A stretch of 64,000 nucleotides of DNA from GCF_056746865.1 NZ_CM163382.1; one strand, 5' to 3'. Counted from the first letter of the stretch, positions 47,487 to 64,000 are shown. The notes: generated from the sequence alone by a model not told the origin. A program made the numbers and translations.

Positions 47487-48133
47487 GCCTCTGCTCCGGG
47501 TTTGATCAGCATCAGACCACAGCCGAACGCGCGGCTTTTGCCATACCCCTGGCTCAGACGTTGCAGAAATAACCCGGGATCGGTGACCGTAAGCATCCCC
47601 GTATAATCCACGCTACTGAACTGGATCAGTTGCCGGGAGTTTTCCCGCCACAGTTGCTGTTGTCGGTAGGCATCAACCGAGGTATCCAGCAGTGTAAAAC
47701 CGCTTCTCTCCCCCTGCGCTGCCAGCCAGTCCAGCGCCGCCTGTTGTTGATGCAACCAGACATCACTTCCTTCCGCCTGCCCCCTCACCTGCCGTTTCGC
47801 CTCCATCAGCAGATCGTGGCGCTTGCCCGCTTTACAGATTGTTGGATTCGCCCGCAGGTTGAAACAAAGTTGTTGTCCGGTACGCAGCTCGGGCACAAAT
47901 GACCGGCATTCGATGGTGAACGTTTCACTTTCTGCCGGGCGTTCCTGCGACAGTACAAAAAAGCGAAACGCGCCCTGGAGTTCTTCCCGACGATAAAGAA
48001 ATTGCCTTTCTTTGCCGCCAGGGAAGAGATCCCACAGCCACTGATGCATCACATATTCCCCGCGATCCACCAGATGCAGCAACTGCGCAGGCGAAAGCTG
48101 GCCGGTATGTAAGGTTATTCTTGAGAGGTACAT
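47483..48133 (-). CDS. cas6e: Cas6e (CasE) crRNA endoribonuclease, divergent I-E variant
   Basis: 216 aa from MYLSRITLHTG with RBS GGAGGA; conserved MYLS N-terminus, FNLRANP and C-terminal GKSRAFGCGL. Confidence 0.8.
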
Positions 48134-48837
48134 GGTTCCTCCTTGCTGAGCCACGGCCCCTGATTGACGGTGCGTTCCCCAAACAACCATTGCTGACGAT
48201 TTAAAGGAACATCCCGGCGGCGCAATATTTTGCTCGCGACCAGGCCGTCGTGCTCCCCTTCCCACCAGCATTCATCCTGAAGTTTCGGGAGTGCGATTTT
48301 CAGGTCGTGGAAATGCTCCTGATACTGGTGATATGCGTTACGTAAAACATCAGACGCGTTGCCTTCAAGCAGTAACGGCGCAAGTGGTAATGCCAGCGGA
48401 TGACTTTTTCGCCCCAGATAAAGCGGAAAAACTGGATGGCGTAAACCGCCCTGCAACTGTTCGAGGCTGTAAGGCGCATCGGCTGTTGTTGCCACCGCCA
48501 CCATCCACCAGGCGTCGGTGTAGTAGTCGCGCCGGGAGATAATCGCGCTCAGAAGATCAGGGTCGCTCAACTCTTCGCGACGGCTGAAATAACGCGCTTT
48601 ACGCACCTCTTTTGGCATCTGGATTGTGTGATAATCCCGTGCCCAGCGCGGGTTACGGCTGGCGCAAACCACCAGTGAATAGTGGCGGTTAAACACGTTT
48701 AATCGTTCGGTATCATCACGCCGAATCCCTACCCCGGCAGCCAGCAGCCCCAGCAATGCTGAGCGCGAAGGCAGTTCATGGGTATGACGCACTTCGCCCG
48801 CTCCAAACAAACATTTCTCAACGTCTACTGAAGTCCA
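48115..48837 (-). pseudogene. cas5e: cas5e (casD) lacking its 5-prime end
   Basis: frame reads ...HELPSRSALLGLLAAGVGIRRDD (Cas5 glycine-rich motif) but hits a stop at 48838-48840 with no ATG; upstream is AT-rich island DNA. Confidence 0.65.
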
Positions 48838-50184: not shown

Positions 50185-50312
50185 CTGGTTGAGTATACAG
50201 TAGTAGACTTTGAGCGACGAAAGAAAAAGCTGTGTCTAGGGTCGCTCCCGAAAAACCGTATACCTCGACGGGCTGGCACAGCCACTACAGTAGAGGACGC
50301 TGAGGTGTGCGT

Positions 50313-51125: not shown

Positions 51126-51270
51126 ACCCTGAGGGTGATTTACTGTTACCCTGAGGGTATTTTTTTATCTTCCCCGTCAATTTTACCATCACCCTTAGGG
51201 TAGATTTCCTCCCGATTACCATCACCCTTAGGGTTAATTTCCTTCCGGTAACCATTAGGCCTGAGGGTAT
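51126..51270. repeat. five copies of palindrome CCCT(G/T)AGGG within ~33-bp tandem repeats
   Basis: ccctgaggg 51127-51135 and 51149-51157; cccttaggg 51192-51200 and 51225-51233; cctgaggg 51260-51267; 33-bp units at 51184 and 51217. Confidence 0.6.
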
Positions 51271-53408: not shown

Positions 53409-53606
53409 TTACTCCTGCTCTTTGGCCTTCCGGCGCTGTTCATATTTTAATTTGCGTCCACAGGCATCTAAGACCCATGCGGAAAAATTAGCACTAGGAT
53501 TAGTTAATTTTTCTTGTTCAACACTGGCATCAATCCCATCTATAAGCTCGTGCGGGAATCGAATATTTTTCTTTGCTGATTTGTTGTTTGTGTTTCCGCT
53601 AGACAT
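53409..53606 (-). CDS. small ribbon-helix-helix-like DNA-binding protein
   Basis: 65 aa; RBS gaggtg; KKNIRFPHELIDGIDASV resembles Arc/CopG beta-strand plus helix. Confidence 0.5.
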   Translation of the reverse strand: MSSGNTNNKSAKKNIRFPHELIDGIDASVEQEKLTNPSANFSAWVLDACGRKLKYEQRRKAKEQE

Positions 53607-53635: not shown

Positions 53636-53711
53636 GGCGCACACAATACAGCAAAAAAAGTGAGAAGTTAAGTATTGACATGTGCGCACACATGATTTTA
53701 ATCTGTGCGCA
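53636..53711. promoter_or_regulatory. divergent promoter/operator region with three GTGCGCA(C) palindromes
   Basis: ggcgcac 53636-53642, gtgcgcac 53682-53689, gtgcgca 53705-53711; TTGACA 53675-53680 with TTTAAT 53697-53702. Confidence 0.45.
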
Positions 53712-53810: not shown

Positions 53811-54014
53811 ATGTTAAATCATACCACACACCCGCAAGGGCGGGACTCGCACAACCTGAATAAATACATCTGGCGTTTTATCGCCCTGAGCACCGCACAA
53901 CCACGCGTAATACACATCGAGGCCGCCAGCGAACAGGAAGCCCGTCAGCAATCCCCGGCTGGCTGCGTGATGGTATTTACTGCCCGCATCCGTCAGGGGG
54001 AATACTATGCGTGA
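53811..54014 (+). CDS. small hypothetical protein (possibly Icd-like)
   Basis: 67 aa from MLNHTTHPQG with RBS gagg; YIWRFIALSTAQPRVIHIEAASEQEARQQ; assignment by weak recall. Confidence 0.4.
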   Translation: MLNHTTHPQGRDSHNLNKYIWRFIALSTAQPRVIHIEAASEQEARQQSPAGCVMVFTARIRQGEYYA

Positions 54015-54264
54015 TGAACGATTTATTCTTCTGGAGCAAAAATTCAGTGAAGCGCCAAAAAATGAAATTGATGCTCTTTTGCATATCGCGAATATGCTAA
54101 AAGTAGCAACGTTCCTTATAGTTTCGAATCTGGAGCATGAAACGGCGTTAGATATACTGAACAGTGCTGTCGATTATTCTGAATATATTGCCGAGGATAA
54201 ATACAGGCAATTACCAGATTTGTTAGCCCATAAATATAAAGAAGAACCTCACACCGGGAAATAA
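54007..54264 (+). CDS. hypothetical protein
   Basis: 85-aa ORF overlapping neighbours on both sides (translational coupling). Confidence 0.5.
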   Translation: MRDERFILLEQKFSEAPKNEIDALLHIANMLKVATFLIVSNLEHETALDILNSAVDYSEYIAEDKYRQLPDLLAHKYKEEPHTGK

Positions 54265-54266
54265 AC

Positions 54267-54569
54267 ATGAAGAAGATTAAATTTACTGGCTTAAATGCCA
54301 GCGGACAGACTCACCCGAAAATCAGGATCGGGGATATTTTCCGGGATAAATATGGTGACAGCGTGGTTATTAATTCCGTGTATGAACGGCACATTACATA
54401 CCGCCGCGCAGGGTACGACTATGACTGTGTGATGCCCGTTCATCAGTTCCGGCGTGATTTTTCACTGGTATGTGCAGCACCACGCAGTAAGCCCACCAGT
54501 AAAGAGAAAGCACGGGCAAATATTCAGGTAATAAAGAACATGATTAACGCATTCAGGGGCAAGAAATGA
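54267..54569 (+). CDS. hypothetical protein
   Basis: 100-aa ORF; stop overlaps start of the 708-aa gene. Confidence 0.5.
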   Translation: MKKIKFTGLNASGQTHPKIRIGDIFRDKYGDSVVINSVYERHITYRRAGYDYDCVMPVHQFRRDFSLVCAAPRSKPTSKEKARANIQVIKNMINAFRGKK

Positions 54570-56692
54570 AACGCGCACCGAATTTAAAGCACCAGCCGAA
54601 AGACAAAATGACGGAGGTGATTATCTTTGCGGGTAGTGATGCCTGGGCACATGCGAAAGAGTGGAGCGAATGGGCCGGAAAGCATATTGCGGCAGATGAT
54701 ACACATCCAGTTATTCTTGGACCGGAACAACTGGCGAGTCTGGCAGACACGCAAATCATCGACAAAGGGCGCTATTACGTGCGCGTTTATCGTGCTGGTG
54801 AAATATCAGAGCAGCACCTTACACAGATAGCGACACTGCTTGCAGTGGCGGGTGTGAAGGAGGCGCGTTGCTACCGCAGCTTTGTTGATCAGCAGCCGGA
54901 GGACTGGACACCGCGCATGGCTGGACTGAAGGATGATGCGGAACGCGGTAACAGTCTGGTGATCAACCTTCCGGCGAAGACAAATTTCACCGGAAATTAT
55001 GATGACGAATTAAAGCCTCGTGTTGAAAGTCGCGTCGATGGTGTTTTCTGGGTAACGCCCAAAGTGGACAAGCAGTCAGGCGAAATTATCCGGCCTGAGA
55101 CGTGGTTATGTTCTCCGCTTGAACTACTGGGAACAGGAACAATCGGCAAAGAGCATTACCGCGTGATGCGCTGGAAAAAACCAGCAAACCATGAGGTCAT
55201 TACAATGGCGGTCCCGTGCGGAGGCATTGGTGACCGTGACGGCTGGCGGTTGCTGAAAGACCACGGCCTTAACGTGACGACCAACGGCAAATACAGGGCT
55301 ATCTTGGCTGACTGGATGCAGTTAAGCGGAAACCATGAGGAATGGCAGTTAAGCACAACAACGGGGTGGCATTTTGGTGCGTACATCATGCCGGATGGTT
55401 CGATCATCGGTGAATCAGAGAAACCCATCCTGTTTACCGGAAAAACTGCCGCTGTTAATGGCTATTCCGTGGCGGGAACAGCGGAGGGCTGGCGCGATAC
55501 CGTGGCACGGCTGGCTGGTGGTAATCCGTCCATGATGCTGGGTGTGGCGGTATCGCTATCTGCACCATTAATCGGGCTGGTGGGTGCTGACGGCTTCGGG
55601 GTTCATCTTTTTGAGCAATCATCAGCAGGTAAAACCACCACACAGAACATTGCATCAAGTTTATGGGGAGAGCCGGACGCGCAACGGCTGACCTGGTACG
55701 GAACGGCGTTAGGTATCGCCAACGAGGCCGAAGCACATAATGACGGGCTGTTACCCCTGGATGAAATAGGCCAGGCCGGAAACGCACGGGAGGTGTCCAC
55801 GTCAGCCTATACGCTGTTTAACGGTTCCGGGAAATTACAGGGGGCGAAGGACGGCGGCAACAGGGAGATAAAACACTGGCGTACGGTGGCAATCAGCACC
55901 GGAGAAATGGACGTTGAAACATTCCTCAAAACGGAAGGGATAAAAATTAAAGCGGGACAGCTTGTCCGTCTGCTTAACGTACCGATGGAAAAGGCCTCGC
56001 AGTTTCACGAATACAGCACCGGAAAGGCGCACGCAGACGCGTTAAAAGATGCCTGGACAGAAAATCACGGGGCGGCAGGTCGTGAGTGGGTTAAATGGCT
56101 GGCAGGCCACCAGCAGGAGGCAAAGGACGCGGTAAGGGCATGTCGCGAGCGGTGGCGCAACCTGATACCGGAGAGCTACGGCGAGCAGGTTCACCGTGTG
56201 GGGGAAAGATTCGCCGTACTGGAGGCCGCGCTTGTGCTTTCCGGTCATGTTACAGGCTGGGATGTTCAGGCGTGCCGTGATGCAGTTCAGCATAACTTTA
56301 ATGCCTGGGTGAAGGAATTCGGCACGGGCAACAGGGAATTTAAACAGATGGTTGAACAGGCTGAGGCGTTTTTGTCGTCGTTCGGGTTCAGTCGATACCT
56401 TCCCTATCCAAACAGCGACGAGCGTGATTTACCGATTAAAGACCTTGCCGGATACAGAAAGGGGAGTATCAGAAACGAAGATGACGAGTTCCGTTTTTAC
56501 ACGTTCCCGCATGTGTTTGAGGGTGAGATAGCACAGGGATTTAATCCGTCTCACTTTGCCCGCGCGTTGAGTGCAGCCGGAATGCTGGAAGCGGGAGGCG
56601 ACCGCCGTTACAAGAAAAAGGCGCTCGGCAGGATTGGCGGGAAGCAACATATTTTTTACGTGCTGATGTTCCAGCCTGAAGCAGAAGATTAA
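54566..56692 (+). CDS. putative replication initiator (primase/helicase-like P-loop protein)
   Basis: 708 aa; Walker-A-like FEQSSAGKTT; directly upstream of iteron cluster and SSB gene. Confidence 0.65.
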   Translation: MKRAPNLKHQPKDKMTEVIIFAGSDAWAHAKEWSEWAGKHIAADDTHPVILGPEQLASLADTQIIDKGRYYVRVYRAGEISEQHLTQIATLLAVAGVKEARCYRSFVDQQPEDWTPRMAGLKDDAERGNSLVINLPAKTNFTGNYDDELKPRVESRVDGVFWVTPKVDKQSGEIIRPETWLCSPLELLGTGTIGKEHYRVMRWKKPANHEVITMAVPCGGIGDRDGWRLLKDHGLNVTTNGKYRAILADWMQLSGNHEEWQLSTTTGWHFGAYIMPDGSIIGESEKPILFTGKTAAVNGYSVAGTAEGWRDTVARLAGGNPSMMLGVAVSLSAPLIGLVGADGFGVHLFEQSSAGKTTTQNIASSLWGEPDAQRLTWYGTALGIANEAEAHNDGLLPLDEIGQAGNAREVSTSAYTLFNGSGKLQGAKDGGNREIKHWRTVAISTGEMDVETFLKTEGIKIKAGQLVRLLNVPMEKASQFHEYSTGKAHADALKDAWTENHGAAGREWVKWLAGHQQEAKDAVRACRERWRNLIPESYGEQVHRVGERFAVLEAALVLSGHVTGWDVQACRDAVQHNFNAWVKEFGTGNREFKQMVEQAEAFLSSFGFSRYLPYPNSDERDLPIKDLAGYRKGSIRNEDDEFRFYTFPHVFEGEIAQGFNPSHFARALSAAGMLEAGGDRRYKKKALGRIGGKQHIFYVLMFQPEAED

Positions 56693-56715
56693 CTTCCCTG
56701 TGTGAGGTAAAAAGT

Positions 56716-56840
56716 TGCGGGTTATGCGGGTTATCCTGTGCATAAGTTAATTAACTGAATGATTAAAAAGGAAATTAATAACCCGCACGTAACCCGCAAA
56801 ACGGCAGTTATAACCCGCAAATGTGCGATTGTAACCCGCA
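56716..56840. repeat. iteron cluster TAACCCGCA (putative island origin of replication)
   Basis: direct copies at 56779, 56790, 56811, 56832 (spacing 11/21/21 bp) plus inverted tandem gcgggttat at 56717-56734. Confidence 0.65.
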
Positions 56841-56902
56841 AAATTTCACTGTAAGAGTGTAAACAAGCGTAACTATCACGTTAAAACCGGAGAACAAACA
56901 GC

Positions 56903-57328
56903 ATGACGGCGCAAATATCAGCTTACGGGCGGCTGGTGGCTGACCCGCAGTTAAAGACCACCAGCAAGGGCACACAAATGGCGATGGCGAGTATGGCGGT
57001 CCCCCTTCCATGCAATCAGACAGATGACGGAACGGCGACGATGTGGTTATCCGTCCTGGCGTTTGGCAGACAGGCTGACGCACTGGCAAAACACCACAAA
57101 GGCGAACTGGTGAGCGTGGCCGGTAACATGCAGGTGAGCTGGTGGACGGGCCAGAACGGCGAAACGAGGCAGGGATGGCAGGTTATCGCAGACAGCGTAA
57201 TCAGTGCGCGAACGGCGCGACCGGGCGGCAAAAAAGGCCAGCAGGGGCAGGCTACTGATGCACTGAACAGGGCAAAGCAACAGACAGGCCAGCACGATGA
57301 TCCGTACGGGGACGGGATACCGTTTTAA
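56903..57328 (+). CDS. ssb: single-stranded DNA-binding protein (SSB-like)
   Basis: 141 aa; OB-fold-like N-terminus, Gly/Gln-rich linker, C-terminal acidic tail DDPYGDGIPF. Confidence 0.7.
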   Translation: MTAQISAYGRLVADPQLKTTSKGTQMAMASMAVPLPCNQTDDGTATMWLSVLAFGRQADALAKHHKGELVSVAGNMQVSWWTGQNGETRQGWQVIADSVISARTARPGGKKGQQGQATDALNRAKQQTGQHDDPYGDGIPF

Positions 57329-57411
57329 TTCACAACAGCGAACAGAGTAATTACCCAGTGCGCCGTAAAGCCCCGTCCTTCAGGTCGGGGATATAAGGCG
57401 CGGTTTTCCAC

Positions 57412-57828
57412 CTAACTAGGTGTTTGCTGTTGTTCAATGTATTGGCGGATGATGGATATTGGCGCACCTCCGCAGCTACTGGCAAAATAGCTGGGACTCC
57501 ATAAAACGCCTTTGTAGTAATACCTGACTGCAATATCTGGTCGATCTCGTCGCAATAATCTACTCGATACGCCCTTGAGACTGTTCACCAGGGTGGATAT
57601 CGCCAATTTGGGAGGATAGTTAATTAGCAGGTGAACGTGATCTCGTTCTCCATCCATTTCAACCAGTTCAGCTTCAAAATCAGCACATACACTTGAAAAG
57701 TAAGTGCGTAGTTTTTCTATTGCGTCATGGTCAAAAATCTGGCGTCGGTACTTGGTAACAAAGACCAGGTGAACGTGCATCAGGAAGACACAGTGCCTTC
57801 CACGTCGGATATCGGTTTCTTTTTTCAT
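57412..57828 (-). CDS. tnpA: IS200/IS605 Y1 (HUH) transposase TnpA
   Basis: 138 aa from MKKETDIRRG; HUH motif HVHLL and catalytic Tyr region VLWSPSYFASSCGG. Confidence 0.85.
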   Translation of the reverse strand: MKKETDIRRGRHCVFLMHVHLVFVTKYRRQIFDHDAIEKLRTYFSSVCADFEAELVEMDGERDHVHLLINYPPKLAISTLVNSLKGVSSRLLRRDRPDIAVRYYYKGVLWSPSYFASSCGGAPISIIRQYIEQQQTPS

Positions 57829-57850
57829 AGGCCAAAGTATAATTTGGCAT

Positions 57851-59059
57851 ATGAAACGACTACAAGCTTTCAAATTCCAGTTAAGACCAAATGGAAAACA
57901 GGAGCGTGAAATGAGGCGCTTCGCGGGCGCATGTCGTTTCGTTTTCAATCGTGCTCTGGCGCTTCAGAATGAGAATCATGAGGCCGGGAACAAATATATT
58001 TCTTATGCAAAGATGACTTCCTGGCTGGTTGAATGGAAAAATGCTACTGAAACGCAATGGCTTAAAGATTCTCCCTCACAGCCATTGCAGCAGTCACTGA
58101 AAGACCTTGAGCGAGCCTACAAAAATTTCTTTCAGAAGCGTGCCGCTTTTCCCCGATTCAAAAAGCGGGGACAGCATGATGCATTCCGCTATCCGCAGGG
58201 TGTTAAGCTCGATCAGGAAAACAGCCGTATTTTTCTGCCGAAACTGGGCTGGATGCGCTACCGGAACAGCCGTCAGGTCACGGGTGTTGTGAAAAATGTC
58301 ACTGTCAGCCAGTCCTGCGGTAAGTGGTACATCAGTATTCAGACAGAAAGTGAAGTATCAACTCCGGTTCACCCTTCAGCATTAATGGTCGGGCTGGATG
58401 CTGGCGTGGCTAAACTCGCCACGCTGTCAGATGGCACGGTCTTTGAGCCTGTAAACAGTTTTCATAAAAACCAGAAGAAGCTGGCGAGACTTCAGCGCCA
58501 GTTAAGCCGCAAGGTTAAATTCAGCAACAACTGGCAGAAGCAGAAACGCAAAATACAGCGACTGCATTCCCGTATCGCAAATATCCGCAGGGACTACCTT
58601 CACAAAGTCACAACGACCATCAGCAAAAACCACGCAATGATAGTCATTGAGGATTTGAAGGTCAGCAACATGTCAAAGTCAGCCTCGGGTACGGTCAGCC
58701 AGCCGGGGCGCAATGTCCGGGCAAAATCAGGTTTAAACCGTTCGATACTGGATCAGGGCTGGTATGAAATGCGCCGTCAGCTTGAGTACAAGCAGCTCTG
58801 GTGTGGCGGTCAGGTGCTTGCTGTTCCGCCAGCGTACACAAGCCAGCGTTGCGCGTGCTGTGGTCATACAGCGAAAGAAAATCGCCTGTCACAAAGTCAA
58901 TTCAGATGCCAGGTATGTGGATATACAGCGAACGCCGATGTAAACGGCGCTCGTAACATTTTAGCGGCGGGGCACGCCGTTCTTGCCTGTGGAGGGATGG
59001 TGCAGTCAGGCCGCCCGTTGAAGCAGGAACCCACCGAAATGATTCAGGCGACAGCCTGA
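57851..59059 (+). CDS. tnpB: TnpB (OrfB) RuvC-like RNA-guided nuclease
   Basis: 402 aa; N-terminus [17 protein letters not shown]; RuvC region [15 protein letters not shown]; zinc finger [12 protein letters not shown]...CQVCG; [10 protein letters not shown]. Confidence 0.85.
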
Positions 59060-59118
59060 ACGTAGCAGGAATCCACGTCCTTCAGGGCGTGGAGGATGTC
59101 AAATATCAATGCGACGAC
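58900..59118 (+). ncRNA. predicted TnpB omega-RNA (tnpB 3-prime end, right-end hairpin, flanking guide)
   Basis: inferred from IS200/IS605 architecture only; right-end hairpin 59073-59092; guide would be about 16 nt from 59103. Confidence 0.3.
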
Positions 59119-59692: not shown

Positions 59693-62224
59693 ATGCCAGT
59701 CGTACCAACAGTATCCGGACGTCAGGTTGAGAGCCGTGGAGTTCAGTCAGCAGGCTTGCAGACGTTTTCTCAGCCAGGTATTGGTGATGCTTTTGTTCGG
59801 GCAGGGGCAGAGGCAATTGATGTTTTTGGTCAGGCAAAACAGCGTGCCAATATTGCCTTGATTCAGGAGGCATCCCTTAAACTCAGTCAGATAGGCAGTG
59901 ATCTGCTGAATAATCCTGAAACAGGATTGCTTAACCTGAAAGGGAAAAATGCTATTGGAAAAGGCCATGAGTATACACAGCAGTTTGATGCTCAGATCGA
60001 ACAACTGGCTATGTCGCTGCCGGATGAACAGGCTCGTAATGCTTTCATGCAGCAGGCGCAGCAGCAGCGTATTCAGTTCGCTACGCAGGCCGGGAGGTAC
60101 GAGATAGGGCAAATAAATGCCTACGAAGAAGGCCAGTTTCAGGCGACACTGCTGAATAATGGTAAAAATGCCTCAGCATTATATGGCGACAACGCAGCAT
60201 ACATATTGGCTAATACGCAAACTTTCCAGCAAATTGAGGATTACGGTATTGCGCATGGCTGGAGCGACGAGCAAATCCAGGCCAAGAAAATCGAGTTTAA
60301 AGAAGCAACAGCAAAAGCAACTGCTCAAAATGCTATTGGAGCAAACTATCTTCAGGTAAGACAGCAAAATGGCGAGTTAAGCGATACTGCTGCTGGATCT
60401 CGCCGTGCTGTAGCAGATAGTGGCTCTTCCGATCGTACCCGCGGTATACGCAACAATAACCCCGGCAATCTTGAATACAGCAAAACTAATCCGTGGATTG
60501 GGCAGACTGGTGATGATGGTCGCTTTGCCAAATTCGAAACCCCTGAACACGGTATTCGCGCGCTTGGTCGCAATTTGCTGTCGTATCAGCGTCAGGGTTA
60601 TGACACCATCAGCGAAATAATTAATCGCTGGGCACCGGCCAGTGATGATAATAAAACTGATGCTTATATACGGGCAGTATGTGCTCAGCTCGGTGTAACT
60701 CCTGACCAGCCGCTTGACGCATCAAATCCTGACACACTGAAATCTCTGTGCAAAGCAATTATTCATCATGAGCAAGGCAGTCAGCCGTACAGTGATCAGC
60801 AATTGGCCGCTGGCGTTAGTGCCGCACTGGGGCTTTCTCAGCTACCGACAAAAAATAAACGTTATACCGGTGTAGCCTGGTTCGATGCTTTAAGTGAATC
60901 AGATCAGGCCAGCGTGTTGCGACAGACGGATGCATTAGCCAGACAGCAGCAGGCTGAATATAGAACGATGCTCGAAAGCCGGGTTCGCGATGCAACGGCT
61001 GCGTATATGCGTGGCGTTGAATTTCCTAACCCGCCTGGTGAGGGTGAGTTCATTGCTGCTTATGGTGTCAGAGAAGGAAACCTGCGATATACCGAGTTCA
61101 GAAATTTGCAGATCGCCGGACAGTATATAGGCTCTTTCCGCAACATGCCGACAAGCAGCATTACCGCATATGTTGAGCAATTACGCCCGGATACTGGTGA
61201 GACAGGGGAGGGGTATGCGTCTCGTGCGGAGTTATTCGACCGGGTATCGGCGGCAGCCACGAAGGTAATAACCCAGAGGCAGAATAATCCGTTTAGTGCA
61301 GCGGTGGAAATCGGAGCCTATAAGCCGATCACCAGCAACAACCCTGACGACATCACTGCCGAGGTGGCTAACCGTTTCTCGTCGCAGGAAAGCTTACGCG
61401 CGTTGGGAATTAATGCCCCACTCCTCAACAGTGAAGAGGCGGCTGCGCTGGCACAGCAGGTGCGCGGCACTCAGAACGTTGACCAGACAATTAAACTGTT
61501 GCAGAGCATGGGGGAGAAGCTGCCTGCGCCAGCAATACGGCAGGTGGCATCTGTAATTGCTCCGAACAGTGCGGCAACAGCCTATTCTGCGCTGCTGCTG
61601 GGCACGCCGGATAACCAGTACGACAACACCAGGCCGACGATCCCATATAGTCAGTTCATCGGGTATAAGCCGACGATGAACAAGTACGACGTTGCAAAGG
61701 TTATTCTTTCCGGCGACCAACTACTGAATCCGACGAAGGCCATGAAGAATGCGGGCATAACTCCGGTACAGTTGCCGAGCGAAGATAAGATGAAAGACGC
61801 TTTCGACGAACAGGTAGGTAATGCATTTGCCCGTAACCCGCAGTTACGCCAGATCAGTTATAGCCTTTTCAAAGCCGCTTACGCAGGAATAGCTTATCAA
61901 TCTGGTGATGCCTCTACGGTAAGAACCAGTATGCCTGATACAGACATTGTAGCTGATGCCGTGAAGTATGCTACTGGCGGTATATACAATGGTTTTAATG
62001 GCGGCGACGTTGTAATGCCTTTTGGCATGGATAAATCTACTTTCAAAGATCGCTATACCACATCTGCGAAACAAGCACTGAAAGATGCCGGACTTAACGT
62101 AAATGCAGTGTCAAATTTCACGCCAGTTAATATCGGCAATAACCGGTATCGGCTTGTAAATGGTAGCGGACGCTGGGCAACAGATCCCAGAACCAATAAA
62201 GCTATTGTCGTGAGGGTTGAATAA
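59693..62224 (+). CDS. large hypothetical protein (843 aa), Q/A-rich
   Basis: strong RBS aggagg; conserved-looking central block IRNNNPGNLEYSKTNPWIGQ...FAKFETPEHGIRALGRNLLSYQRQGYDTISEIINRWAP; no P-loop; function unknown. Confidence 0.7.
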   Translation: MPVVPTVSGRQVESRGVQSAGLQTFSQPGIGDAFVRAGAEAIDVFGQAKQRANIALIQEASLKLSQIGSDLLNNPETGLLNLKGKNAIGKGHEYTQQFDAQIEQLAMSLPDEQARNAFMQQAQQQRIQFATQAGRYEIGQINAYEEGQFQATLLNNGKNASALYGDNAAYILANTQTFQQIEDYGIAHGWSDEQIQAKKIEFKEATAKATAQNAIGANYLQVRQQNGELSDTAAGSRRAVADSGSSDRTRGIRNNNPGNLEYSKTNPWIGQTGDDGRFAKFETPEHGIRALGRNLLSYQRQGYDTISEIINRWAPASDDNKTDAYIRAVCAQLGVTPDQPLDASNPDTLKSLCKAIIHHEQGSQPYSDQQLAAGVSAALGLSQLPTKNKRYTGVAWFDALSESDQASVLRQTDALARQQQAEYRTMLESRVRDATAAYMRGVEFPNPPGEGEFIAAYGVREGNLRYTEFRNLQIAGQYIGSFRNMPTSSITAYVEQLRPDTGETGEGYASRAELFDRVSAAATKVITQRQNNPFSAAVEIGAYKPITSNNPDDITAEVANRFSSQESLRALGINAPLLNSEEAAALAQQVRGTQNVDQTIKLLQSMGEKLPAPAIRQVASVIAPNSAATAYSALLLGTPDNQYDNTRPTIPYSQFIGYKPTMNKYDVAKVILSGDQLLNPTKAMKNAGITPVQLPSEDKMKDAFDEQVGNAFARNPQLRQISYSLFKAAYAGIAYQSGDASTVRTSMPDTDIVADAVKYATGGIYNGFNGGDVVMPFGMDKSTFKDRYTTSAKQALKDAGLNVNAVSNFTPVNIGNNRYRLVNGSGRWATDPRTNKAIVVRVE

Positions 62225-64000
62225 TGTCTGATGTTTTTTCTTTGGCTCCAGAAGGTCAGGCATGGATTGACGACAAAACAGTTGCCAACCCAGCAAGGCC
62301 AGAAGACTACGATCCGACTCCCTTCCAGGGTTCAGGTACTGCACTTTTGAGCGGCGTGGCGGAGGGGGCTCTCGGTCTCGCGCAGTCTGCCGTCGGATTC
62401 AGCAAGCGTCTGATTAGCGATCCGGCATTTACCGCAGACGTGGCACCGACAGTTAATATTTTTCGGGAGATGTTCCCTGATGCTGACAAAACACTGAATG
62501 ATACATACGACACGATCGGAAAACAGTTACAGGATGCCCGCAGCTATGTGAAGCCTGATGCAGGCAGCCAGGGAATGGCGGCTGAGGTATTAAATGAGCT
62601 TGGTAAATTTGTTCCTGCAATCGGAACAACTATGTTTGGTGGTCCGCTCATCGGCGCTGCTACAGCCTTCAGTTCTACGTATGAGCAGTCCTATCAGGAT
62701 TTTAAAGGGAAGGGAGTAGACGAGGCTACAGCGCGTAACCTGGCAACGCAGCAGAGCCTTTTCAATGCTGTGGGTATGGCCTTACCCGCTGCCGTCGGCA
62801 CCACACTGGCAACGCGCATTGCCTCAGGTGTGGCAATCAACACCGGATTCGGTGGACTGAACCGTTACTCAGTAGGCGCAACACTGGAGGAAAAAGGCTA
62901 CACGGAGATGGCAAAACAGTATCGGGTATTTGACGGTCAGGCGATGTTAGTCGATGCCGTTTTAGGCGGGGTCTTTGGTGGCGTTCATCACCTGACTACC
63001 CATAATAACCATGATGGTACAGAGTCGAACATTTCTGCAGAAGAAATAAAATCAACTTTTGGTGAACATTATCAGCAATCTCCTGATGGTAACATTGAGT
63101 CAATGGTTCGTGATTTATCTGATTCAGGAGTAATAGAACTTATTAATGAACCAGCAATAAAAAATAGTGATGGAGAAATACTTCTGAATAAAGGTCATGT
63201 GACAGTAGCTTCCGGAAAAGAACCAATAATAAGAATAAATATTAATGGATTAAAAGACCATGAAGAACTGTTAGAAACCCTTCATCACGAGGCGCTTCAT
63301 CTTGAGCAGCGCCATTACCCTGACTGGAAGGCCAGAAAGCTAGCTAATGCTGTACTTAAATCTGCAAACAAGCATTCTGACTATCCTGAATTTGCATATG
63401 GGATGTCACAATATTATGAATATAAGAAAAGGGGTGAGTACCCTGAAACATATCCTGAGTGGTTGTACGCTGAAGAAGTTGCCGCACATGCAGTAAATCC
63501 ATCTCTAAAGACAAGCGTTTCATCATGGGAAAAAATTATTTCAGGTTTTAAAGCCTATATATTCAGATACAGTGGTATTCAGGTTGGAACCGTTACACCT
63601 GAGCAGTTACGGTTACTCGTAAGTATGCGTCTTCGCAATATGAAACTGGAAGCCGCAGTAGAAAAAGTTTTTGGTATCCGGGCGAGGGAAAGAATAAAAC
63701 CAAGCGATATTGATGCAGCCCACATTTTGAATGAGGGGCTTCATTACGATATTGAATCGTCACCAGTGCTTCATACCAGCAATGAGAGCATCAACAGCCA
63801 TGTTGACGCCATGGATGAAGCATACAGGCAACTTAATGATGGTCAGCCTGTAAATGTTGGGGGGATGGCGCGAGGGCTTGATGGTCCATTGCGATCAGAT
63901 ATATCTGATACTTACCAAGAGCAATACCATGAAATACAAAAGGTTTTTGAAGAAAATGGTGTCAGATACGAAACATCATCAGAGCCAATTAGTGAATCGC
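62224..64000 (+). CDS. large hypothetical protein (partial, at least 592 aa), HExxH motif
   Basis: taATG overlap with previous gene; frame open to window end by manual translation; Gly-zipper hydrophobic segments; LHHEALHLE. Confidence 0.65.
   Translation, partial: MSDVFSLAPEGQAWIDDKTVANPARPEDYDPTPFQGSGTALLSGVAEGALGLAQSAVGFSKRLISDPAFTADVAPTVNIFREMFPDADKTLNDTYDTIGKQLQDARSYVKPDAGSQGMAAEVLNELGKFVPAIGTTMFGGPLIGAATAFSSTYEQSYQDFKGKGVDEATARNLATQQSLFNAVGMALPAAVGTTLATRIASGVAINTGFGGLNRYSVGATLEEKGYTEMAKQYRVFDGQAMLVDAVLGGVFGGVHHLTTHNNHDGTESNISAEEIKSTFGEHYQQSPDGNIESMVRDLSDSGVIELINEPAIKNSDGEILLNKGHVTVASGKEPIIRININGLKDHEELLETLHHEALHLEQRHYPDWKARKLANAVLKSANKHSDYPEFAYGMSQYYEYKKRGEYPETYPEWLYAEEVAAHAVNPSLKTSVSSWEKIISGFKAYIFRYSGIQVGTVTPEQLRLLVSMRLRNMKLEAAVEKVFGIRARERIKPSDIDAAHILNEGLHYDIESSPVLHTSNESINSHVDAMDEAYRQLNDGQPVNVGGMARGLDGPLRSDISDTYQEQYHEIQKVFEENGVRYETSSEPISES

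Follow-up and report, generated by a model that had tools for sequence, protein, structure and literature searches.

We analysed a 64,000-nucleotide stretch of NZ_CM163382.1 (assembly GCF_056746865.1; hereafter 'the window') and conclude, with a probability of roughly 85%, that positions 53811–57328 form the replication zone of a phage-inducible chromosomal island (PICI) of the Gram-negative type, in which an operon ending in an initiator-helicase gene (rep) is followed by an iteron origin and a gene for a single-stranded DNA-binding protein (SSB), with a mechanism that we propose by analogy. This reading builds on the homology and predicted fold of Rep, the synteny with EcCICFT073 (the prototype Escherichia coli PICI), the PICI-type context and the covariation between the iterons and the C-terminal domain of Rep, and it makes the module a member of a known, experimentally characterised kind. 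An initial annotation, made from the sequence alone, had described the region as a self-contained replication module of a phage satellite. We recovered the five open reading frames (ORFs) it listed, the Walker-A-like motif in the 708-aa protein, the exact positions of an array of four direct repeats plus an inverted tandem pair, and the SSB-like gene with its DDPYGDGIPF tail (Table 1).

Rep, the 708-aa product of the last operon gene, carries a single Pfam domain (DUF927, residues 169–436, E = 1.6 × 10−46), matches the NCBIfam family Cch1 (E = 1 × 10−9) and, in a sequence search of the PDB, retrieves Rep of the Staphylococcus aureus pathogenicity island (SaPI) SaPIbov1 (8TCH, E = 2 × 10−14) and Cch of SCCmec (5DGK, E = 9 × 10−4). 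Its AlphaFold2 model, built with 62 homologues, reaches a predicted local distance difference test (pLDDT) score of 91.6, and Foldseek places it closest to Cch (5dgk, E = 9 × 10−23, template modelling (TM) score 0.76–0.78) and then to SaPIbov1 Rep (8tch, E = 6 × 10−22, TM score 0.69), with further matches to BrxL, SaPI5 PriRep, MCM, ComM and poxvirus E5. The Walker A motif aligns to the P-loops of both 8tch and 5dgk, its G355 and K356 are invariant across the 62 homologues, and D399 and E400 of the Walker B motif are conserved in at least 90% of them. On sequence and predicted structure, Rep is a DUF927/MCM-like AAA+ initiator-helicase of the family of SaPIbov1 Rep and SCCmec Cch. Biochemically, SaPI Reps and Cch have been shown to act as initiator-helicases that load themselves, melt the origin and unwind DNA with 3′–5′ polarity in an ATP-dependent manner, and their C-terminal winged-helix domain binds iterons (PMC9371898). 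The exact Rep protein is on record with 290 member sequences. Among 50,697 phage records the family is matched in 23 and covered at full length in one, a rarity that fits a gene belonging to satellites or islands.

The origin lies directly 3′ of rep. Two tandem copies of the iteron TAACCCGCA, in a 9-bp register and beginning 24 nt past the rep stop codon, face four direct copies in the opposite orientation (spaced by 11, 21 and 21 bp) across a 45-bp spacer of 24% GC, compared with 49% for the island, which we predict to be the melting site. The 9-mer occurs eight times in the window against 0.65 expected, a count that none of 100 shuffles reached, and six of the eight, all exact, fall within 125 bp. 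In PICIs, an AT-rich centre lies between opposed iteron sets (PMC6092414, PMC9371898), and the minimum for a SaPI origin is at least two iterons on each side of that centre, in opposite orientation and directly 3′ of rep (PMC9371898). The window origin fits this description point by point, including the two-iteron minimum on each side, and so places an initiator gene next to a two-set iteron origin, as in other PICIs. A full-text literature search for the iteron sequence returned nothing relevant.

To put this origin into comparative context, we took loci with Rep homologues at decreasing identity (L-numbers; P-numbers denote proteins) and tabulated the repeats 3′ of rep. Eight loci share one geometry, with tandem copies at 9 bp after the rep stop, roughly 45–60 bp of AT-rich sequence and opposed copies at 21-bp spacing, while the iteron itself is TAACCCGCA, TAACCCAC, GGGACAAC, TGAACCACG, TTGTCCAA or GTTGTCTCA. 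By locus, TAACCCGCA is found in the window, L003 and L004, TAACCCAC in L007 (Citrobacter) and L008 (Plesiomonas), GGGAC[A/G]AC in L011, TGAACCACG in L012, TTGTCCAA in L009 and GTTGTCTCA in L010, the locus of a primase-fused relative. The left tandem pair or triplet stands at the equivalent place, with allele-specific sequences, in L003, L004, L007, L008, L010 and L011; in L012 it consists of one exact and one degenerate copy. The 11/21/21 spacing of the right set recurs in L011 and L012 with their own iterons. When four origins are aligned, the 9-mers are kept while the intervening spacers diverge, and in Citrobacter and Plesiomonas a G-to-A change affects all six iterons in concert. Some origins in this set (L003 6840–7215, L011 7136–7582, L012 7157–7500) have two modules, in which a second, mirrored iteron/AT-rich unit is followed by a (TA)n run, for a total of 11–13 iterons.

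Which part of Rep the iterons track is shown by a natural chimera. P0025 is 95–100% identical to the window Rep over residues 145–590 but only 35% identical over residues 609–708, and its origin combines unrelated iterons with an identical layout (9-bp register, AT-rich centre, 11/21/21 spacing). Because P0025 keeps the helicase core but differs in both C-terminal domain and iterons, iteron sequence follows the C-terminal domain and not the core; iteron recognition by this predicted winged-helix-like domain is thus supported comparatively, by domain-by-domain identity and by the chimera. A larger exchange is visible between L003 and EcCICFT073, whose DNA is 96.6% identical through the DUF4222 gene and the first ~420 nt of rep, loses all similarity from the helicase core through the C-terminal domain to the origin, and returns to 97.4% identity from the small ORF before ssb onward. 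Since similarity stops and resumes at the edges of this block, helicase core, C-terminal domain and origin have been exchanged as one cassette between near-identical islands. A third cassette type, with a RepA-family helicase between DUF4222 and ProQ/PerC, is present in E. coli ETEC1747.

EcCICFT073 itself provides the closest functional precedent, as its cloned rep–ori maintains a temperature-sensitive plasmid and deletion of its pri-rep cuts transfer about 100-fold (PMC6092414, Fillol-Salom et al. 2018). Like the window, it has a divergent YlcI/YnfO gene, an Icd-like gene, small ORFs, DUF4222, rep, an iteron origin directly 3′ of rep with two iteron sets around an AT-rich region, SSB and PerC, with an additional small ORF between origin and SSB; an ORF of 83–85 aa also precedes ssb in L003 and L004. 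The N-terminal domains of the two Reps are 42% identical and the SSBs, in the same position, 66% identical. The two islands differ in their helicases (D5_N + DUF5906 + Pox_D5 in EcCICFT073, DUF927 in the window), in their iterons (CTGTCTACC versus TAACCCGCA), in their integration sites and in their late zones, which hold a lambda-type capsid and decoration protein in EcCICFT073 and epsilon15-type internal virion proteins in the window island.

The wider context is also that of a PICI. The chromosomal surroundings in the window are those of E. coli (hyc/hyp, mutS, rpoS, cysDNC, iap, a CRISPR array and type I-E cas genes), and the island starts at about 48799 and ends beyond base 64000. A copy that is 99.5% identical lies in strain YZLc1-3 (L001) at the 3′ end of tRNA-Gly, adjoining actS, where it measures 19.15 kb and is bounded on both sides by a 16-bp attachment (att) repeat. 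From RefSeq annotation of an identical island, NCBIfam and PHROGs, the gene order at the left end is integrase, int-alpA RNA motif, a hypothetical gene, an AlpA-like helix-turn-helix (HTH) protein, AntA/B and Bro-N, followed by two small minus-strand genes (one of the YlcI/YnfO family), the Icd-like gene, the 85-aa ORF, DUF4222, the DUF927 protein and SSB, and then by a ProQ/FinO-like gene, a hypothetical gene and PerC (all three as in L001; the window copy has an insertion sequence (IS) in their place) and by three large virion proteins. The integrase matches NF007246 (E = 2.5 × 10−98), the 65-aa HTH protein matches a PHROG labelled 'excisionase and transcriptional regulator' (E = 1.6 × 10−11) with Phage_AlpA/HTH_17 at homologous loci, and the int-alpA motif scores 46.9 bits against a gathering score of 35.8 (Rfam RF02996). 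An integrase and an AlpA-family regulator at the left end, a single direction of transcription, a length within ~10–20 kb, a specific att site and no full structural or lysis set are all as expected of a PICI: the island's annotation lists no terminase, tail or lysis genes, and the captured virion proteins number only three. The layout conforms to the four-zone plan of Gram-negative PICIs (integration, Bro/Ant, replication and captured late genes), a plan that explicitly assigns DUF927 proteins and SSB to replication (PMC10111431).

The three late proteins (843, 686 and 918 aa; phrog_992, phrog_1145 and phrog_684) occupy 59693–62224 and continue beyond 64000 in the window island, and 21330–28677 in L001. 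The 843-aa ORF (59693–62224) shares 79% identity with a protein of Salmonella phage epsilon15 whose annotation reads 'lytic transglycosylase/head protein'. The zone thus resembles a block of internal virion proteins captured from a podovirus of the epsilon15/phiV10 type, and these genes suggest such a podovirus as the helper phage. A full-text literature search for PICIs with epsilon15-type genes found nothing relevant.

By analogy with SaPIbov1 Rep and SCCmec Cch, the module would replicate autonomously after induction by a helper phage. Once the island is induced and excised, the Rep C-terminal domain would bind the TAACCCGCA iterons directly 3′ of rep, one assembly forming on the inverted pair and another on the four direct copies, and the AT-rich spacer between them would melt. 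Rep would then load itself as a hexameric 3′–5′ helicase with no separate loader, the island SSB would coat the unwound strands, and its E. coli-like acidic tip ending in IPF would probably recruit host replisome proteins. Priming would most likely fall to host DnaG and synthesis to Pol III. The SSB assigned to this role is of the bacterial type, combining an OB-fold domain with the acidic IPF tip; it scores 59 bits against a TIGR00621 cut-off of 53.95 and matches SSBs in the PDB at E = 4.5 × 10−9.

Several observations weigh against this picture of a complete, working replicon. The window origin contains the first iteron module only, with 6 copies compared with 11–13 in the close relatives L003, L004, L011 and L012, and in the absence of the second module it could be weakened. 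SSB is missing from the related islands L007, L008 and L009, which makes it an accessory, non-essential part. The element as a whole may be crippled, although rep, ori and ssb are intact, because it sits at a secondary site and has suffered an insertion with a 983-bp deletion just 3′ of ssb. The site lies within cas5e, 63 nt from the gene's start (left junction regions 48115–48810 and 48792–48830), and the only stretch that the cas5e target shares with the 16-bp att core is CTTCGCC (7 bp); among 5,426 complete E. coli genomes the cas5e junction is present in one, there with another PICI-like island. The insertion is an IS200/IS605-family element 26 bp past the ssb stop that stands in place of 983 bp of the tRNA-Gly copy, namely the ProQ/FinO-like gene, the hypothetical gene and the 5′ part of PerC. 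On these grounds the module might be correctly identified and yet be a non-functional remnant, with the window copy unable to replicate or spread. We consider this unlikely, if the most serious of the alternatives, as nothing is missing from rep, ori or ssb, whose identity to the copies at the usual tRNA-Gly site is 99.5%, the retained module still satisfies the SaPI minimum, the exact Rep recurs in 290 database members and about 45 complete genomes have the same short six-iteron origin, which is for that reason no private lesion of this copy.

Whether Rep also primes its own replication is a separate question. The initial annotation had likened the region to the primase/rep plus ori arrangement of PICIs: homology, synteny, context and covariation uphold the rep–ori–SSB part, and the profile search it had proposed for the 708-aa protein returned DUF927, with helicase and initiator homology, but no primase domain. 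An alternative is that Rep is a bifunctional primase-helicase, with an active, divergent Toprim primase at its N terminus that would make the module self-priming in the manner of P4 alpha or T7 gp4. The closest larger relatives, of ~900 aa (for example P0121, 58% identical to Rep over the helicase part), carry Zn_Ribbon_Prim and Toprim_3 in an N-terminal region of ~340 residues, with invariant Toprim E-G and DxD residues. The corresponding region of Rep is a small α/β domain of ~135 residues with no zinc ribbon (Pfam finds DUF927 only), no counterpart of the Toprim Glu or DxD residues and no conserved acidic column, its only invariant columns being G23, A26, P48, L56 and G78. When its profile was compared with those of the Toprim regions in the primase-fused proteins, the probability was 0.07%, a Foldseek search with the domain gave nothing significant, and in EcCICFT073 the domain is joined to a D5-type helicase that is unrelated. 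A self-priming Rep is therefore very unlikely. The 'DNA primase' label that PHROG and RefSeq families attach to Rep is a matter of naming, as we found no primase domain behind it.

Since Rep lacks a recognisable primase domain, priming is probably by host DnaG, and the module, contrary to the initial annotation, is not fully self-contained but has to rely on the host or a helper for priming and polymerase. One tentative extension, which we hold to be possible but doubtful, is that PICI Reps are three-part mosaics whose N-terminal α/β domain would stay constant, always follow DUF4222 and serve as a non-catalytic adaptor linking any helicase–C-terminal domain–ori cassette (of DUF927, D5 or RepA type) to a fixed partner, be it host DnaG, the island SSB or a helper-phage signal.

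The assignment of the repeats as an origin has its own competitor, because iterated 9-mers at helical-turn spacing (11/21 bp) are typical also of operators and centromere-like sites, and the array between rep and ssb could in principle be bound by a regulatory, partition or packaging protein, as an operator, a centromere-like site or a pac site. We give this little credence: the repeats co-vary with the Rep C-terminal domain and swap with the helicase while the flanking regulators stay constant, and their position, AT-rich centre and opposed orientation match the mapped and tested origins of SaPIs and EcCICFT073. Least credible of all is mobilisation of the island by a conjugative plasmid or integrative and conjugative element, with DUF927 acting as in islands of the MGIVchHai6/MGIVflInd1 type, for even though HTH-preceded DUF927 genes are conserved in IncC- and SXT/R391-mobilised islands (where they are dispensable for mobilisation; PMC7449626), the island has no annotated transfer-related gene, carries phage virion genes 79% identical to epsilon15 downstream of the module, includes Ant/Bro, PerC and AlpA in a gene order that is that of EcCICFT073 gene for gene, and has relatives with capsid, portal and protease genes.

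Upstream of rep, the PICI replication operon consists of three small genes, the first of which, the Icd-like gene, occupies the same position in EcCICFT073 and is 90% identical to it in DNA sequence. All four genes had been thought to overlap at their stop and start codons, which holds for two of the three junctions: the 67-aa and 85-aa ORFs share 8 nt (ATGCGTGA, 54007–54014) and the DUF4222 and rep genes are translationally coupled through ATGA at 54566–54569, but between the 85-aa and 100-aa ORFs, where TAA ends at 54264 and ATG starts at 54267, there is a 2-nt gap. DUF4222 lies directly upstream of rep in L003, L004, L007, L011, CFT073 and ETEC1747, regardless of helicase type; a PDB sequence search with the 100-aa protein found no solved homologue. 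A PADLOC scan of Rep and the small ORFs gave no defence-system match.

A candidate promoter for the operon has TTGACA and TTTAAT hexamers 16 nt apart. It was not listed by our sigma-70 scan because the −10 hexamer TTTAAT fails the scan's second-hexamer rule. Two copies of TGTGCGCA (53681–53688 and 53704–53711) overlap it and may form an operator, a divergent YlcI/YnfO-family gene (53409–53606, minus strand) faces it, and EcCICFT073 has a promoter-like site at the equivalent place with another repeated motif (GTGGGCCACAC). This arrangement suggests that the YlcI/YnfO gene and the promoter repeats are an allele-specific repressor–operator pair controlling the replication operon.

Table 1 Coordinates of features of the replication zone and neighbouring elements, in window positions.
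Feature	Position	Strand	Details
int-alpA RNA motif	50229–50296		Just 3′ of the integrase gene; Rfam RF02996
Candidate replication-operon promoter	53675–53711	+	TTGACA 53675–53680, 16 nt, TTTAAT 53697–53702
Icd-like protein, 67 aa	53811–54014	+	First operon gene; NCBIfam NF033153 phage_ICD_like, E = 3.5 × 10−19, above cut-off
Hypothetical protein, 85 aa	54007–54264	+	Matches only PHROG families without known function
DUF4222 protein, 100 aa	54267–54569	+	RefSeq annotation of identical island
Rep, 708 aa	54566–56692	+	Predicted initiator-helicase, DUF927 / Cch / SaPIbov1-Rep type
Rep N-terminal domain	54566–54970	+	Residues 1–135; small α/β domain, no demonstrable primase
Walker A motif SSAGKTT	55619–55639	+	Residues 352–358
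Walker B residues D399-E400	55760–55765	+	Within the motif LDEIGQ
Rep C-terminal domain	56390–56689	+	Residues 609–708; predicted iteron recognition (winged-helix-like)
Left iteron set	56716–56733	−	Two tandem TAACCCGCA at 56716 and 56725
AT-rich spacer	56734–56778		Predicted origin melting site
Right iteron set	56779–56840	+	Four direct TAACCCGCA at 56779, 56790, 56811 and 56832
Island SSB, 141 aa	56903–57328	+	TIGR00621
SSB C-terminal tip DDPYGDGIPF	57296–57325	+	
IS200/IS605-family element	57355–59102		tnpA 57412–57948 (−), tnpB 57851–59059 (+)

Some further observations concern the island's surroundings and regulation. ARAGORN found no tRNA in the window, because this copy sits away from the usual tRNA-Gly site. 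The cas1e gene of the locus already had an internal stop, judging by its identity with strain 118UI. The other PICI-like island at the same cas5e site, in E. coli ETEC1747 (L013, 20171–30332), is ~10 kb long with a truncated integrase, and the helicase between its DUF4222 and ProQ/PerC genes is of the RepA family and not a DUF927 Rep. Either the site has been used repeatedly or the replication cassette was swapped in place. The AlpA-like gene is preceded by a 33-bp tandem repeat (51183–51255, 2.2 copies, 87% matches) to which a regulator may bind. When the island was scanned against Rfam with an E-value limit of 0.1, the matches were int-alpA and a sub-threshold HgcC (27 bits, 58992–59115, across the tnpB 3′ end and the right end of the IS), with no C4/isrK-type immunity RNA upstream of the Icd-like gene.

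Beyond EcCICFT073, the module resembles several characterised replicons in part. In SaPIbov1 a homologous rep is immediately followed by an origin whose opposed iterons flank an AT-rich centre, but SaPI iterons are penta- or hexanucleotides, not 9-mers, and SaPIs have a separate or fused Pri protein whereas the window has no recognisable primase; the 135-residue Rep N-terminal domain, DUF4222 and SSB are features of the window and not of SaPIs, and the window island differs further in its Gram-negative host and its single direction of transcription. SCCmec Cch, a DUF927 family member and the best structural match to Rep, is also encoded alongside a single-stranded DNA-binding protein (PMC7581432), yet it is only ~16% identical to Rep in sequence and is paired with the polymerase-like primase CCPol-MP, which is absent from the window, and SCCmec is not a phage satellite. 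The P0121 type (Zn_Ribbon_Prim + Toprim_3 + DUF927) shares the helicase part and a locus with a tandem triplet, an AT-rich stretch, 21-bp direct repeats and an SSB-like ORF downstream, and differs by the ~340-residue zinc-ribbon/Toprim region that the window Rep is missing. P4 alpha differs in its superfamily 3 (SF3) D5-type helicase and its ori/crr arrangement; the window island does not match a P4-like satellite, which would combine an alpha-type (Toprim + D5) primase-helicase with sid, psu, delta and CI RNA: its helicase is of DUF927 type, no C4/isrK RNA came up at the Rfam threshold above, and sid, psu and delta are absent from the annotation of the identical island. For EcCIEDL933, a capsid-forming PICI (cf-PICI), a guessed location in EDL933 gave an ordinary prophage.

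The analysis identifies the ~19-kb segment around the module as a phage satellite rather than a decayed prophage and locates its origin and initiator; it leaves the current picture of PICI biology unchanged. If the N-terminal domain is indeed an adaptor in a mosaic Rep, this would explain both how a primase-less satellite replicon is primed and how origin specificity can be swapped without rewiring of regulation. More immediately, the comparison yields a specificity map of six iteron alleles that share one geometry and are each paired with a Rep C-terminal domain, together with a natural domain-swap chimera. Both could help in testing how self-loading initiators of the MCM-like type recognise their origins, and in designing satellite replicons that are compatible or incompatible with one another.

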